DNA from: Candidatus Eremiobacteria bacterium
GTDB taxonomy: Bacteria > Vulcanimicrobiota > Vulcanimicrobiia > Vulcanimicrobiales > Vulcanimicrobiaceae
Assembly (NCBI GenBank): GCA_963737065.1
Contig: CAVTRC010000001.1
Span: forward strand, 32,001-96,000
Reading direction: 5' to 3'
Length of the DNA stretch: 64,000 nucleotides
The translations under genes were made by a program, and so were the position numbers. Shown piece after piece: positions 31,950 to 40,050 of the stretch. The notes under the pieces are model-generated. The model saw only the letters and a program-made list of their open reading frames with translations. It ran no database searches and had not been told where the DNA came from. How positions within the stretch are numbered: position 1 is the first letter of the stretch; each line of letters starts with the position of its first letter.

Positions 31950-34609
31950 ACGCAATCTTGCGGCGCTGCTGGACGCCGTCAGAACACTGGAACCCACGCT
32001 TTCCCGGGAGACGATTACCGCGGCGATCCGCAGCGCGACGGACCCCGCTATGCTGGGCAAGCTCGTTCGTTCGATCGCGCCGAATCCACGCGCCCTGCTC
32101 GATGCAGCCGCCGCGGCGATGCCGGCACATAGCCGGCTCGTTTGAAGAACTCCTCAAGCGCGGCGCGCGACACATCGTGCGCCCCACGTGCGGCCTGTGC
32201 GGAGAGGCGGCGCTCTTAGAATACAAATTTCAAGACCGACGGATCTGCCGAGAATGCTACACGAAGAACCTCAAAGCGGAATGCTGCATCTGTAAACGGA
32301 TGAAACAAATCTGCTCGCGCATCGATGGAAAGCCAAGGTGTGCTGCCTGTCACGTTCGCGATCCGCAAAACCACGAAATCTGCAGCATATGCAAGGCCCT
32401 CGCCTATCCACGGGTGCGCCCCAACGGCCGACCAATCTGTCAGCTCTGTTACGAAGCGCCGAAGCACGTCTGCACAAACTGCGGAAAGCATGCCCCCGCG
32501 CAGACGACGGAACCGCGAGTACTCTGCAAAGAGTGCTACGAAGTGATCGTCCTGGGAAAACCAGTGCGGGTCCTTCCACGCGCCAAGCACCGACCGATGC
32601 GCCAGCGCGTCTGTGCAACCTGCGGTGAAAGACGGCTCTGTACCAACTTCCTTGGTGATCAGCCGAAATGCGCCGATTGCGCAGGGCGCCCGAAGCTAGA
32701 ATGCGTTTCGTGCCGCAGGGAACGCCCGGTGCAGGCCATTTGGGAGATCGGTCCAGTGTGTAACACTTGCTATGACGGCAAGCGCGGTATGTGCAACCGC
32801 TGCGATCATGAAGGATTGGTTATTAAGTATCGCCACAACGCAATTTGTCACGAATGCGCCGGAAAGCCGAGTCAGTCGAAATGCGGCGGCTGTGGCCATC
32901 GTGAAGGGCTTTACGAACGCGGGCGCTGTGCTCGCTGTGTGCTCGACCGAAAGTTGACCGACTTGCTGCGGGACACGAGTGGGGAGTTCGCCAGCGAGCT
33001 GCTACCCCTAAAGAACCTACTTCTGGAACACCCGAGTCCTGAGTCGGTGCTCGGCTGGCTACGAAAGAGTCCAAAAGCGACTCACGTACTTGGAGCACTC
33101 GCCCGACGCGAATTGGAGGCGTCACATGTCGCATTCGACAATCTCGGCGGCGCGCCGTCCATTAGCTTCTTGCGATCTTTGTTGATGTCGAGCGCCGTTC
33201 TGCCGGAGCAGTCGCGTAACTTTTCGCTTCTGCTGCCATGGCTCGAACGTTTTCTCTCACGCTGCCCCGCGGCCCATCGACCCTTACTTTCAGCATTTGC
33301 GCAATGGCATGTCTTTCGACGACTACGCGACAAGGCGCGCTTTGGTGATATCACGGAGAGCTCCAACCGATGGGCCCGTGCGCGTTTGCGTTGCGCCGCC
33401 GTGTTCCTAAAATTTCTAGATAGCAAAGGTCATACCCTGAACACCTGTCAACAGGCCTTGCTTGATGAATGGCTAGCAGAGGGCTCGACGTCAGCGTACC
33501 TCGTGCGTGACTTCGTCTGCTGGGCATATCGCCGAAATCTGATGCGGCAACACGTTGTTCCGCTACGCAAAGTTAAGAAACCGGTCGACCCGATCGATGC
33601 GGATGCGCGGTGGGCGATCATTCGTCGCCTCATCACGGACGACACCATCCCCGTGGGTTTGCGCGTAGCCGGAGCATTAAACTTACTCTTTGGCCAGCAT
33701 GTGAGCAGAATCGTGCGCCTCACCGATGCCCATGTTATAAACATTGATGAAGAAACGTGCGTGGTGCTAGGCCGCGAACCAACTCCGCTTCCCCAACCCT
33801 TTGCTCGGCTGATCTTGGACCTCGTTAAAAGGCGGCGCAGTCAAAAGTGGAGTTGACCCGCTTCCGTGGAGACTTTCAATCTTACAGAGAAAGGTCTCCA
33901 TATGGCAAAGCGCCCCACCTATCCGCCGGAATTCCGGCATAGGATCCTCGAGCTGGTTCGCTCCGGTCGCAGCGTGAATTCGATTGCCGCCGAGTTCCAA
34001 GTCGCGCGGCAATCGATCGTGAACTGGCTGAAGCAAGACGACGTTGATACGGGCCGCCGCGACGGCGGTTTAACAACGGACGAACGCAAAGAACTTGCGG
34101 CACTGCGCCGTGAAAATAAGCGCTTAAAACTCGAAGCGGAAATCCTGTCAAAAGCCGCGGCCTGGTTCGCTCGGGAAACGCACGCGGTTCCGAGCAAATC
34201 TTCGGATTCATAAAGGCGTACCAGGCCAACTATACGATTACGATGCTGTGTCATGTGCTCGACGTTTCCCCGAGCGGATACTACGCGTGGTGCAACCGAT
34301 CGCCGTCGAAGCGCCGCCAAGACGACATCGTTCTCGGCGATCAGATCGATGCGTTCTATCGGAAGTCGTATGGTATTTACGGCCGTCCGCGCTTGCATGC
34401 GGATCTTCGCGAAGCCGGCATTCGGATCTCCGGAAAGCGCCTTGCGCGGTTGATGCGCGAACGCGGAATTGTCGGCGTTTCTCGGAGGAAATCCACAGTC
34501 ACGACCATACGCGATCGGGATTCGCGTCCGGCGCCTGATCTCGTTGAGCGCAATTTCCAAGCCGATGGGCCTGACCAGCTTTGGGTCGCTGACATTACGT
34601 TGTATCTTG

Positions 34610-34790
34610 GACCGACGCGGCGAACAACCGTCGCGAGGTGGGGATAGCACGGATATTACGTGAGGCAGCAACAGCCTGAGATGTAGATGTCGCACCCCAC
34701 TGCATTTTCAGCGCCGCAGGAGATCGGACGATAGCAAAGACGTTGCTCATCGAGCGAAGAGTCTGGATTTACAAGGCTGATCCGCGGGTG
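34610..34790 (+). ncRNA. bridge RNA (target- and donor-binding loops); ends approximate
   Basis: ATATTACGT 34653-61 and ATGTAG 34681-86 match the target; ACGATAGC 34728-35 and TACAAG 34770-75 match the donor junction. Confidence 0.85.
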
Positions 34791-34821
34791 GCGCGATTTC
34801 GATTTGAAATGTGGAGGCGCT

Positions 34822-35805
34822 GTGAAATTCATCGGGATTGATGTCTCTCGTGATAAGCTCGACTGCGCGGTAGTCGACGACTGTGGAACCGTTATTCAAC
34901 GATCGCGAGCATTTAAGAATAGCGCTGATGGCGTCGATGCGCTCCTGAAGTGGGTCGGAAAAATCGCCAGTAAGGGGCACGCGCGGTTTGTCATCGAGGC
35001 AACGGCAGCCTATCACGAGATGGCCTCACTGCGCCTTGCGAAGACCGGTGAATTCGTCGCAATCGTGAACCCATTTCACGTGCGTTCTTTAGCGCGCGGG
35101 CTAGCCATGCTCAGTAAGAGTGACGCGATTGATGCGCTCGTCCTTGCGCAATATGGGCGTCTTGCAAAGCTGCGCCGATGGGTACCGCCAGCTGCGCAGC
35201 TTGTTGATATTCAGGCTCTTTTGCTGCGGCTCGATGCGATTGAATCAGACCTCTTGCGTGAGCAGAATCGTCGCGAGCAGGCTGCAGCCAGAGAATCCGC
35301 GACGCTTGTGATTGGCTCGATTGACGCGAGTATCAAATTCCTAAAGCGTCAGCGGAAAAGCATCGAATTCGCGATCAGCAAATCGATTGAAACCGCTCCG
35401 GGTATCGCGGATGACGTCGAGCGCTTACGCTCGATCCCCGGCGTGGGCGAAAAGACAGCAAACCGCATGGCGACCATGCTGCGTATGCACGACTTTAAGT
35501 CGGCGCGTGAAGTGGCCGCCTTCTGCGGCCTCGTTCCGGTCGAGCATAAATCCGGAACGAGCGTCTATCGCAAGCCGCGACTCTCGAAGGCCGGCAACCC
35601 AAGAATGCGGGCGGCTCTATACATGGTTGCAGTCGTCGCCATGCGGTTGAACCCCGACGTCAAGGCGCTTTACGATCGACTCGTAGGACGCGGTAAAGCA
35701 AAAATGGCGGCTCTCGGTGCGTGCATGCGTAAGATCGTTCAGATATGTTTCGGCGTACTGAAGTCGGGAAAAACGTACGCCCCGCAGGCTGTTGTTAGAG
35801 CTTGA
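34822..35805 (+). CDS. IS110 DEDD recombinase
   Basis: IGIDVS, IEATA, KSDAIDA, SIPGVG, GLVP...SGTS; GGAGG RBS before GTG. Confidence 0.95.
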   Translation: MKFIGIDVSRDKLDCAVVDDCGTVIQRSRAFKNSADGVDALLKWVGKIASKGHARFVIEATAAYHEMASLRLAKTGEFVAIVNPFHVRSLARGLAMLSKSDAIDALVLAQYGRLAKLRRWVPPAAQLVDIQALLLRLDAIESDLLREQNRREQAAARESATLVIGSIDASIKFLKRQRKSIEFAISKSIETAPGIADDVERLRSIPGVGEKTANRMATMLRMHDFKSAREVAAFCGLVPVEHKSGTSVYRKPRLSKAGNPRMRAALYMVAVVAMRLNPDVKALYDRLVGRGKAKMAALGACMRKIVQICFGVLKSGKTYAPQAVVRA

Positions 35806-36679
35806 CTTCCCAGACGATATCTATATCCCGACCTGGGGTGGATTCGTATACCTCGCAATTGTGCTCGATGCTTACAGTCGTCGAGTCGTCGGCTGGGCAA
35901 CTGCTAATCACTTACGCACCGAACTTGTTCTGCAAGCGCTCAACTCATCAATCTATCGGCGACGGCCGGAAAACGTTATCCATCACTCGGATCAAGGCTG
36001 CCAATACACCTCAATCGCCTTCGGCCTGCGGTGTCGCGAAGCCAAGGTACGCCCGTCGATGGGTTCAGTCGGTGATGCATACGATAACGCGATGTGCGAG
36101 AGCTTCAACGCAACGCTCGAATGCGAACTACTTGCGCGAAGTTCGTTCAAAAGCCAGCGTGAAGCTGAACAAGCGATCTTCGCGTATATCGAGGGTTTCT
36201 ACAACCCGCATCGCCGGCATTCCGCAATCGGGTATCTCTCACCGAACAACTTCGAGCGCCGCATGAGTCATGCCGCTTGATGTCCAAGTCGCATTTCTCC
36301 GCGAAAGCGGGTCAACTCCAAAGCGCCCGAGGTTGGCATCAGGCGAATTCCTTTTGTTTCCGGGAAAGAACTACGGCAAGCCGACGACAACTGATGTGCT
36401 GAGTCATCGGTTGCAAAATATTGGAATCAGCGTACGTGCCGGCCGAAACGCTGCGCTGATGGAGATCGCGGCTAAGCTTCCCGCACCAGTGCTACGGGAT
36501 TTGCTCGGCATCCACATAAATGTGGCGGTAATTTGGAACCGCGCCGCAGGGCACAGCTATGCCAATTATGTCGGCGGTCTGAAGCGACAGAATGCTAAGA
36601 CTTAATCGGACAGTTGGCGAAGGTCGCATCGCATCCTGCCGCGTCACTGAGCGTGACGTCGGCGACGAAGGAGACGATC

Positions 36680-37714
36680 TTGACCACCGAACGCAAAGTC
36701 ATTCGTGCCAAAGTCGGCCTGCTCAACCTTGCAAAGCAGTTGGGGAACGTGCAGCAGGCCTGCAAGATGATGGGGTTTAGTCGCGATAGTTTCTATCGCT
36801 TCCAAGAGCTCTATGAAACCGGCGGTGAGGCCGCGCTCGCGGAAATCTCGCGCCGAAAACCGATCCTGAAGAACCGAATCGATCCAACGATCGAGGATGC
36901 GATCGTGACGCTCGCAATAGAACAGCCGGCGTTCGGCCAAGTGCGCGTCGCCAATGAACTCAAAAAACGTGCAATGACCGTTTCTCCCGCCGGCGTGCGC
37001 TGCGTTTGGCAGCGGCACGATCTTGAGACGATGAAGAAACGATTGAAAGCACTAGAAGCAAAAAGTGCACAGGAAGGTTTGGTTCTGACCGAAGCGCAGC
37101 TCGCAGCACTTGAGAAGGCGCAGAACGAGAAGGACGCGCACGGCGAGTTCGAGAGTGAATGCCCCGGTTATTGCGGCGCACAAGACACGTTCTACGTCGG
37201 CACGCTCAAAGGCGTCGGCCGTGTATATCAGCAGACCTTTGTCGACACGTATAGCAAAGTTGGATTCGCGAAGCTGTACCAGCAAAAGACGCCAATTACT
37301 GCAGCAGATCTGCTCAATGATCGGGTCATTCCATTCTTTGAAGAGCACGATATTCGCGTGAGCCGAATCCTCACTGATCGTGGAACCGAGTACTGCGGAG
37401 ACGTCCAGAAGCATCCTTACGAGTTGTACCTCGCAATCGAAGACATCGATCACACGCGCACCAAGGCAAAGAGCCCCCAAACAAACGGCATCGTTGAACG
37501 CCTTCACAAGACGATGCTTAACGAATTCTACCGCGTGGCATTCCGCAAGAAGATTTACCATACGGTCGACGAGCTGCAAGCCGATCTCGATGCATGGATG
37601 CGCGAGTACAACATAGAACGCACGCATCAAGGGCGCTGGTGTTACGGCAAGACGCCGATGCAGACATTTTTCGACAGCTTGGAACTCGCCAAGGAGAAGC
37701 TATTTGCAGCCTGA
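36680..37714 (+). CDS. IS481-family transposase (element ends not identified)
   Basis: [43 protein letters not shown]. Confidence 0.9.

Positions 37715-38237: not shown

Positions 38238-40050
<1,813 letters not shown>

Follow-up and report, generated by a model that had tools for sequence, protein, structure and literature searches.

IS621 of E. coli, an insertion sequence of the IS110 family and the reference bridge-RNA system, carries at its left end a bridge RNA comprising a 5' hairpin and two loops, one target-binding and one donor-binding (Durrant et al. 2024, PMC11208160; Hiraizumi et al. 2024, PMC11208158). According to the published account, pairing to both core strands is strongly preferred in this system and core mismatches are disfavoured (PMC11208160). 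A CT target core is highly conserved in relatives of IS621, where it is typical rather than defining. ISEc21 is directed into the second-D DDE codons of IS3-family transposase genes by a non-coding RNA that lies upstream (Siddiquee et al. 2024, PMC11187229), which agrees with the initial annotation of the present locus, where ISEc21 had been named as a precedent for IS3 targeting at another DDE residue.

Here, we describe an element within the window (the whole stretch of 64,000 nucleotides that was analysed) which is very probably an intact IS621-type member of the IS110 family, with target-loop guides matched to the D-I-T-Y-I/V codons at the first catalytic Asp of IS3 transposases. The range initially assigned to it, 34592..35830, consists of the element together with its target flanks, and the features discussed below are collected in Table 1.

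Table 1 Features of the IS110-family element and its IS3-family host (positions in the window)
Feature	Position	Strand	Remarks
Host IS3-family element	33848..36320	+	limits via comparison of two genomic copies; orfB interrupted by insertion
IS3 terminal inverted repeats			~25 bp: TGGAGTTGACC...GGTCAACTCCA
IS3 orfA	33903-34213	+	
Left target + core, left junction	34592..34600	+	ACATTAC-GT = codons (G)AC ATT ACG T
IS110-family (IS621-type) element	34601..35822	+	1222 bp including right-hand CT core; ends conserved among relatives; two 100% identical copies
LE start	34601-34608	+	TGTATCTT
-10 half of predicted junction promoter	34603..34608	+	TATCTT; made only by RE-LE joining
Bridge RNA 5' stem-loop	34616..34635	+	predicted fold; helix 1 with compensatory changes in 7/7 pairs
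Target-binding loop module	34637..34701	+	outer stem GGUGGGG (34637-34643)/CCCCACU (34695-34701) around LTG, inner hairpin, RTG
LTG	34653..34661	+	AUAUUAC-GU (AUAUUACGU; DNA ATATTACGT); reaching 34652 (G), entire Asp codon covered
RTG	34678..34686	+	GAGAUGU-AG; ATGTAG part 34681-34686; pairs with top strand (C)T-ATATC
AU 3' of RTG	34687..34688	+	position of the IS621 A81/U82 handshake guide (PMC11208158); complementary to donor positions 6-7 (AT, 35819-35820)
Donor-binding loop module	34722..34782	+	stem GAUCGG/CUGAUC around LDG, inner hairpin 34738-34764, RDG
LDG	34728..34735	+	ACGAUAGC (DNA ACGATAGC); opposite donor ACGATATC
RDG	34770..34776	+	UACA-AG; TACAAG 34770-34775; pairs with donor top strand CT-TGTA
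Recombinase gene	34822..35805	+	GTG start, 327 aa, GGAGG at 34813-34817; DEDD RuvC-like domain + Tnp domain with catalytic Ser
-35 half of predicted junction promoter	35802..35807	+	TTGACT; overlaps recombinase stop codon
Left donor + core, right junction	35814..35822	+	ACGATAT-CT
Right target	35823..35829	+	ATATCCC = codons (T)AT ATC CC
Predicted target sequence for RE-LE donor insertion			GACATTACGTATATC

An IS110-family element at the first catalytic Asp of an IS3 transposase

The recombinase contains both the N-terminal DEDD domain and the C-terminal Tnp domain of its family (PF01548, 1.3e-22; PF02371, 1.8e-25), and its closest sequence matches in the PDB are the transposases of ISCro4 (E 5e-51, the best) and IS621 (E 7e-48). 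Residues D7, E59, D101, D104 and S255 align with the catalytic motifs of IS621 (GIDvs, iEAT, SksDaiDA, SKAG) and are invariant across 30 homologues. The ends of the element are likewise conserved among its relatives (TGTATCTT ... AGACG(A/G)TATCT); terminal inverted repeats and a target duplication are both absent, and the insertion is scarless.

The host is an IS3-family element with the Pfam domains HTH_Tnp_1, HTH_21, rve and rve_3. Both halves of the target ACATTAC-GT-ATAT named in the initial annotation are present at the element boundaries. Rejoining the orfB flanks restores GAC ATT ACG TAT ATC in frame, encoding D-I-T-Y-I within ...LWVADIT|YIPTWGG..., and the right flank enters the Pfam rve profile at its position 15. 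This places the insertion at the first DDE aspartate motif, in line with the earlier reading that the guides spell this motif of IS3.

At the sequence level, joining RE to LE creates TTGACT, a 17-nt spacer and TATCTT, so that the two halves reported initially lie at opposite ends of the linear element. TTGAC and TATCTT are conserved among relatives, and no sigma-70-like site was found upstream of the bridge RNA in the linear element.

Bridge RNA structure and guide pairing

The predicted fold of the 5' non-coding end of the element has one hairpin plus two internal loops. An alignment of 65 left ends shows compensatory changes in 31 of the 33 consensus base pairs, and 95.7% of the cells are paired, compared with 35-48% when the partners are slid; none of 500 shuffles reached the observed values. 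A search of Rfam 15 with positions 33800-36400 returned no match at E <= 1, so the bridge-RNA assignment depends on our own alignment together with published descriptions.

The guides that the initial annotation had proposed were all located within this structure, the target guides inside the gtgggg/ccccac stem. The LTG forms nine of nine pairs with the target, including the one U:G wobble noted earlier, which lies opposite C34593, while the RTG forms six of seven pairs counted from the core, with one further pair being a G:T wobble. The joined ends of the element itself (ACGATAT-CT-TGTAT) are matched by the donor-binding loop, as had been proposed for the circle junction, with the RDG paired at 6/6 positions and the LDG at 7/8; the LDG mismatch at position 7 (G/T) is common to most of the family. 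Directly after the RDG, G34776 is able to form a pair with C34598, at position 7 of the target. Protein, RNA architecture, four guides, handshake bases, junction promoter and scarless insertion all agree with the scheme published for IS621 (PMC11208160, PMC11208158), whose layout the initial annotation had drawn as a parallel.

Guides covary with flanks and donors among relatives

The left-end alignment fixes the guide positions by homology, and 63 related loci have both flanks. At the aligned positions, the guides of the window element pair with their own flanks at 12 of 12 non-core positions, a value reached by only 25 of 3906 non-cognate guide/flank pairs. Across the family, combined LTG and RTG pairing of at least 11/12 occurs at 31/63 cognate loci against 110/3906 non-cognate pairs, and all seven non-core LTG positions are paired at 40/63 cognate loci against 150/3906. 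Since non-cognate pairs rarely reach 12/12, or even 11/12, the guide match in the window exceeds chance. The donor guides covary with their donors as well: ACGAUAGC occurs with ACGATATC in the window and in L019, a relative that is 70% identical and located in a homologous IS3, ACGGUA(G/U)C occurs with ACGGTATC in other relatives, and AUGGUAUC occurs with GATGGTATC in L092 and L095.

A survey of the flanks of homologues, which had been suggested in the initial annotation, uncovered a 13-element clade (SH-aLRT 100 for its 13 rows, taken from a quick tree) whose members occupy D-x-T-Y codons in transposase genes of the IS3, IS6 and IS1595 families and, in two cases, a DUF932 gene. Pfam matches of the right flanks were to rve at six loci, DDE_Tnp_IS240 at seven, DDE_Tnp_IS1595 at one and DUF932 at one. 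The orientation relative to the target gene is sense in all 15 near-clade loci with a Pfam-matched right flank.

The insertion place reads GAY ATY ACN TAY RTN in 18 intact homologues of the host IS3 that related genomes carry. The window guides pair at 12/12 positions with 17 of these 18 sites when G:T and U:G wobbles are counted, or with 16/17 when L116, which comes from an unpublished genome (G231), is omitted. Several host genes have unoccupied sites that reach 11/12 with wobble, which means that the true specificity must be stricter than the wobble-tolerant count.

Searching genome contigs yielded three loci of relatives, no relative at E <= 1e-60 was present in 352 other genomes of the host's order, and in a sample of 401 genomes from the order of G353 (five candidates scored per genome) the only relative was in G353 itself. 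Among PLSDB plasmids, the best identity was 43%.

Core dinucleotide and proposed insertion mechanism

The target core at the window insertion is GT and the donor core is CT. The initial annotation had described this as a natural core mismatch; the difference is real, but it is not peculiar to the window copy, since core position 1 is the wobble base of the Thr codon and varies among targets. Natural target cores in the clade include GT, AT and TT, each combined with a CT donor. The left-junction core is other than CT in 7/11 near-clade loci, against CT in 52/52 more distant relatives, and all right ends among the relatives listed terminate in CT. At core position 1 the LTG reads G and the RTG reads C, a disagreement that entails one core mismatch in every target; at the window site, the AG of the RTG reads a CT core, giving a G:G mismatch against the target G.

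The left junction carries the core base of the target and the right junction the CT of the donor. IS621 is reported to cut the top strand 3' of the core (T9), with the mismatched bases after bottom-strand exchange lying 3' of the core (PMC11208158; PMC13626964). The junction pattern fits top-strand cleavage of this kind, and lends natural support to the published geometry. Resolution of a heteroduplex core with strand bias, which we also considered as the cause of the pattern, was dropped given the reported IS621 cut 3' of T9 (PMC11208158; PMC13626964).

By homology with IS621, the element would excise as a circle, whose RE-LE junction would form the promoter TTGACT-17-TATCTT and drive expression of the bridge RNA and the recombinase. 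The recombinase-RNA complex would then base-pair with the IS3 site through one loop and with the circle junction through the second, and the top strands would be exchanged 3' of the core T, resulting in a scarless insertion that splits and inactivates the IS3 transposase. From the same analogy, we infer that the element may be transcribed, form circles and be active at present.

Two copies in one genome and alternative explanations

The genome carries two copies of the element that are 100% identical over 1301 bp, and both cognate sites in this genome are occupied; no unoccupied genomic site with at most one mismatch to the guides was found. Of 68 D-x-T-[YF]-[IVLM] sites listed in this genome, none lies in a transposase-like W..D context. 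Both copies could derive from a single insertion if the composite was duplicated afterwards, leaving one documented event in this genome. Under such an account, which keeps the same element and mechanism, an IS3 already carrying the IS110 element was copied later through trans mobilisation or recombination, and the copies do not count as independent evidence that the site is targeted. The junctions are indeed identical in both composites, and the location of L019 in a homologous IS3 could mean that the composite was co-inherited. The two IS3 hosts, on the other hand, have different flanks and differ at 18 positions (a cluster of 15 plus three scattered), with 0 differences over the 1222 bp of the IS110 part; with the cluster counted as one, 4/4 events fall outside the IS110 part, which has a chance of ~0.06 and is only suggestive. 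The genome also lacks an intact copy of that IS3 able to mobilise the composite. On balance, we consider later copying of the composite possible but doubtful.

The element might instead be a stranded relic, inserted once through its bridge RNA and now immobile, either as targets are exhausted in this genome or as core-mismatched guides perform poorly. The lack of a free cognate site, the count of 0/352 in other genomes of the order at E <= 1e-60 and the disfavoured status of core mismatches in IS621 (PMC11208160) would all suit a relic, but the element has an open reading frame, has kept its catalytic residues, its two loops and both promoter halves intact, and is present in two identical copies, all of which makes this account improbable. 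That the protein or the structure of the DNA selects the site, with the complementarities at the left end being coincidental, seems hardly credible, as guides and flanks covary over 63 loci and four target classes, and the guide positions are set by a structure with 31/33 covarying pairs. Nothing specific speaks for coincidence, apart from the fact that, with a target that is in part a palindrome (TACGTA), its LTG and RTG can pair mutually, which is what the single-sequence fold shows.

Discussion

We lean towards a reading in which a monophyletic IS621-type branch acts as 'IS hunters', with bridge RNAs that would read the first-Asp D-x-T-Y codons common to the DDE transposases of IS3, IS6 and IS1595, and that would have switched between families by a few guide-base changes. 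In the window lineage, U or G stands opposite synonymous positions, and the resulting G:T and U:G wobbles would cover nearly all synonymous sites. Any base would be accepted at core position 1 (the Thr wobble base, read as G by the LTG and C by the RTG), while the CT of the donor is kept. The lineage of the element appears specialised against rival mobile elements and, if the 'IS hunter' reading is true, it provides a naturally occurring bridge recombinase whose demands on the target core are relaxed.

This would be a second, independent case, after ISEc21, of an RNA-guided IS110-type element aimed at DDE catalytic codons, from another subgroup and at another residue. Accordingly, conserved transposase codons may be a recurrent safe harbour, being multi-copy, horizontally mobile and host-harmless, with insertion disabling a competitor. 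The clade also displays natural retargeting among three IS families, with guide changes traceable base by base. Its natural insertions, which combine a CT donor with target cores GT, AT and TT, and the way LTG and RTG split the reading of the core form a test set for engineering bridge recombinases with a looser core constraint. We found no description in the literature searched of IS110-type elements at first-Asp D-x-T-Y codons or in IS6/IS1595 genes, although the target logos and supplements of Durrant et al. and Siddiquee et al. may hold cases. Three subfamily peptide motifs were absent from the ISfinder protein set (PMC11187229 Supplement 6) in an exact-string comparison, a weak check compared with a homology search, and a fourth matched unrelated IS1111-type entries only.

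Among solved structures, the ISCro4 transposase (PDB 9t56) is the nearest in protein sequence. IS4321/IS5075 resemble the present element as IS110/IS1111-type elements with a specific target inside another mobile element, but they target terminal repeats instead of catalytic codons, and are of IS1111 type with a downstream non-coding region.

The likeness to IS621 extends from the recombinase (327 aa here, a 328-residue PDB chain for IS621, with DEDD and Ser motifs in common) and the bridge RNA at the left end to donor positions 6-10, which are A-T-C-T-T in both, the AU after the RTG, corresponding to A81/U82 in IS621 (PMC11208158), and a promoter divided over the RE-LE junction, predicted here. 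The two differ in protein sequence (~40% identity, estimated by eye from the alignment), in the target, which here is a motif within the coding sequence of another IS and in IS621 a REP sequence, in the target core, which is NT here (GT in the window) and CT in IS621, and in the split reading of core position 1 by the target guides of the present element.

With ISEc21, the element shares RNA-guided insertion, predicted here, at conserved DDE-motif codons of IS3-family transposase genes, a bottom-strand match located 5' of the top-strand match, and a promoter at the circle junction, likewise predicted here (PMC11187229). The second D is targeted by ISEc21, whereas the present element targets the first. 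Transposases of the ISEc21 subgroup are reported to span 345-385 aa (ISEc21, 358), while the 327 aa found here group with IS621 and IS492 (315-330 aa; PMC11187229). Finally, the targets reported for ISEc21 in that account are IS3 members only (PMC11187229), whereas relatives of the present element are also found in IS6 and IS1595 genes.

Organisation of the nested elements

The locus consists of one insertion sequence nested inside another, an IS3-family element outside and an IS110-family element inside. The outer orfB is broken after ...LWVADIT and continues with YIPTWGGFVYLAIVLD beyond the insertion. The left junction is ACATTAC-GT followed by TGTATCTT, and the right junction is ACGATAT-CT followed by ATATCCC; rejoining the flanks yields GAC ATT ACG TAT ATC. 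All strings listed in the initial annotation were found at their places in the sequence. The recombinase likely starts at GTG 34822, six bases past GGAGG, giving a protein of 327 aa, equal in length to the database form. It matches the solved transposases of ISCro4 (E 5e-51) and IS621 (E 7e-48), with which its DEDD and Ser motifs align, and these motifs are invariant across 30 homologues.

Features of the nested locus and its surroundings (window positions unless a contig is named)
Feature	Position	Description
Outer IS3-family element	33848-36320	Limits by comparison of two genomic copies; inverted repeats ~25 bp
Outer orfA		HTH_Tnp_1 (Pfam)
Outer orfB		HTH_21, rve, rve_3 (Pfam)
Inserted element	34601-35822	1222 bp; single protein with both Pfam domains of IS110-family transposases
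Direct repeats	33845-33847, 36321-36323	AAG, 3 bp
Second IS3 copy	G000:C1:1286182-1288654	Flanked by TAC and GTG
Cys-rich ORF, upstream piece	31958-33856	632 aa; no Pfam match
Cys-rich ORF, downstream piece	36270-36605	~110 aa; no Pfam match
Transposase genes downstream	36614-37714 / 38238-40050 stretch	One with HTH_29 and rve; the other an IS21-type istB (minus strand)
ORF adjoining istB	39025-40050	341 aa

The direct repeat flanks the IS3 copy in the window; no such repeat borders the second copy, which may have been rearranged after insertion. The IS3 composite apparently splits a long Cys-rich ORF. Its surroundings are rich in insertion sequences: just downstream are a transposase that we read as IS481-like and an istB of IS21 type encoded on the minus strand.

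A predicted bridge RNA with guides to the flanking codons

Folded as a single sequence, the left end forms two long stem modules preceded by a hairpin at the 5' end, with a modest advantage over shuffles (z = -2.0), so the structural claim rests on comparison with relatives. Scans of genomes and metagenomes returned 3 and 80 loci, respectively, with protein identities of 44-74%, and the ends TGTATCTT and AGACG(G/A)TATCT are common to all relatives found. The left end was located in 66 loci, of which 65 were aligned (L047 was omitted as a near-duplicate of L048). RNAalifold produced a consensus of 33 pairs in 8 helices with compensatory changes in 31 pairs; 95.7% of cells pair on this structure, versus 35-48% when partners are slid by 1-3 columns, and 0/500 shuffles matched any observed structure measure. 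The RNA runs from a 5' hairpin through outer stem, 5' loop strand, inner hairpin and 3' loop strand, the latter series being repeated once. The IS621 bridge RNA is described with that layout (PMC11208160), and the alignment thus bears out the IS621-like architecture initially proposed. The predicted junction promoter is likewise present at the sequence level, with TTGACT, 17 nt and TATCTT formed when the right and left ends are joined; a scan of the linear, unjoined form found no sigma-70-like site upstream of the RNA. The same genome carries an unrelated second IS110-family gene (C1:2420663-2421601, L014; 34% identical) containing two in-frame TGA codons.

At homologous columns of loop 1, the 5' strand is the left flank in sense, and the right flank is complemented by the 3' strand. 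Among 63 loci having both flanks, all 7 non-core positions of the left target guide (LTG) paired in 40/63 cognate versus 150/3906 non-cognate combinations, and LTG plus right target guide (RTG) paired at 11/12 positions or more in 31/63 versus 110/3906. The target guides named in the initial annotation pair 12/12 with their own flanks, and its donor guides are confirmed in loop 2, which complements the element's own ends and covaries with the variable ones (A/G at donor position 4). Directly 3' of the RTG stands AU, complementary to donor positions 6-7, at the place of A81/U82 in IS621 (PMC11208158); directly 3' of the right donor guide stands G, complementary to target position 7, at the place of G166 (PMC11208158). 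The bases after the core-reading AG therefore fit the IS621 scheme. In the window's LTG, the third bases of the Asp and Ile codons are faced by U. In its RTG, those of the Tyr and Ile codons are faced by G, and the leading base of the Ile/Val codon by U. We infer that the recombinase tolerates G:T and U:G wobbles in target pairing.

An apparently free first core base

Core base 1 is the third position of the target's Thr codon. Left-junction cores in the near clade, the group of 13 elements in the tree below, are GT at 4 loci, CT at 4, AT at 1 and TT at 1, and the right-junction core is CT at every locus. L015 is outside these counts: its left junction (L015:121-150) is GACATCACAT-T-TGTATCTT, with an additional T that no other locus has and that may stem from slippage by 1 nt during insertion or from an indel acquired afterwards. 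Of the 11 near-clade loci, 9 have G at LTG position 8, 1 has U, 1 has A and none has C, and the RTG core reading is CT throughout; the LTG columns read CT in 46/52 loci of the remaining relatives, the far group.

IS621 is described as cutting the top strand after T9, with mismatches following bottom-strand exchange lying 3' of the core (PMC11208158; PMC13626964), from which it follows that the core stays with the left-hand partner. The observed left/right pattern is that prediction. Hence the natural mismatch initially noted between a GT target and a CT donor is real, but it matches IS621 cleavage geometry and needs no special repair story. IS621 is reported to favour strongly a CT core that is paired on both of its strands (PMC11208160), whereas near-clade targets are used with any first core base; this use is the unusual feature left over.

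The clade targets D-x-T-Y codons in several transposase families

When 69 distinct full-length proteins were placed in a quick maximum-likelihood tree, the 13 elements formed one clade (SH-aLRT 100), with the other 56 outside. Far elements with both junctions have CT at both in 52/52. They are not flanked by transposase genes, and several of their flanks resemble REP-type hairpins by eye. At L047, L048, L072, L073, L075 and L086 the left flank is a short GC-rich palindrome with the element at its 3' foot (e.g. gtcgggyt.aarcccgac-CT), and these targets appear REP-like, as reported for IS621.

Target classes from Pfam matches on flanks of the near clade and truncated loci of similar identity
Target	Loci	Codons
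IS3 (rve)	window, L018, L019, L016, L015, L020	D-[IF]-T-Y-[IV]
IS6 (DDE_Tnp_IS240)	L017, L039, L038, L025, L033, L026, L027	D-[EQ]-T-Y (L025, L033, L027, the loci with left flank)
IS1595 (DDE_Tnp_IS1595)	L028	D-E-T-Y-V-G-G
DUF932	L021	R-Y-T-Y-I-P-T

D-x-T-Y presumably contains the first catalytic Asp, as established for the rve/DDE fold. The left flanks of L023 and L034 are ...WH[IM]DET, which by eye suggests IS6 sites. In L034 (1716-1790) the IS6-type ...WHMDET is joined to a right flank that does not continue an IS6 gene, which may reflect a deletion or recombination between two element copies. No Pfam family was found on the L049 flank. L021 (307-1639) and L022, at 54-55% identity, are ~110 bp longer between stop codon and right end. 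Both are inserted in R-Y-T-Y-I-P-T codons, which in L021 belong to a DUF932 gene, and the short right flank of L022, YIPTIEVL, resembles that of L021. Starting at the Thr codon, the site is similar to that in IS3; this looks like natural off-family retargeting.

Copies and empty sites

The 3.08 Mb genome (2 contigs) holds exactly two element copies, one in each of two IS3 copies. Since the IS110 parts are identical while 18 differences separate the IS3 arms and the outer flanks also differ, two insertions are weakly favoured over one. Of these differences, 15 lie in a 52-bp orfA patch (33958-34009), which has the look of gene conversion or recombination with a diverged relative and not of point drift, and 3 are scattered. 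No free site with at most one mismatch was found in this genome, and 0/18 two-mismatch sites are occupied. A search of 352 further genomes in the order recovered no copy at E of 1e-60 or better.

IS3 elements related to the outer one are present in 33/347 genomes of the family, a tally including the unpublished G231 and G301. The 19 IS3 loci fetched contain 18 intact sites (L118 has none; a further regex match in L112 was left out as not an IS3 site), all 18 of the form GAY ATY ACN TAY RTN, with cores CT 9, GT 8 and AT 1. With 17/18 of them, pairing by the guides of the window is 12/12 if G:T and U:G are counted, but only 7-10/12 strictly; without L116, from G231, the counts are 16/17 sites and GT 7.

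Comparison with known systems

Notable at the level of the clade are a D-x-T-Y target shared by several families, guides whose placement would tolerate synonymous changes, and a first core base that appears free. Full-text literature searches turned up no account of first-Asp targeting or of IS6 or IS1595 targets; supplementary target tables may contain some. By every testable feature except the CT target core, the sequence comparisons indicate an IS621-type bridge-RNA element. Like ISEc21, it aims at IS3 catalytic codons, but it lies outside the ISEc21 cluster, belongs to another size class and targets another Asp.
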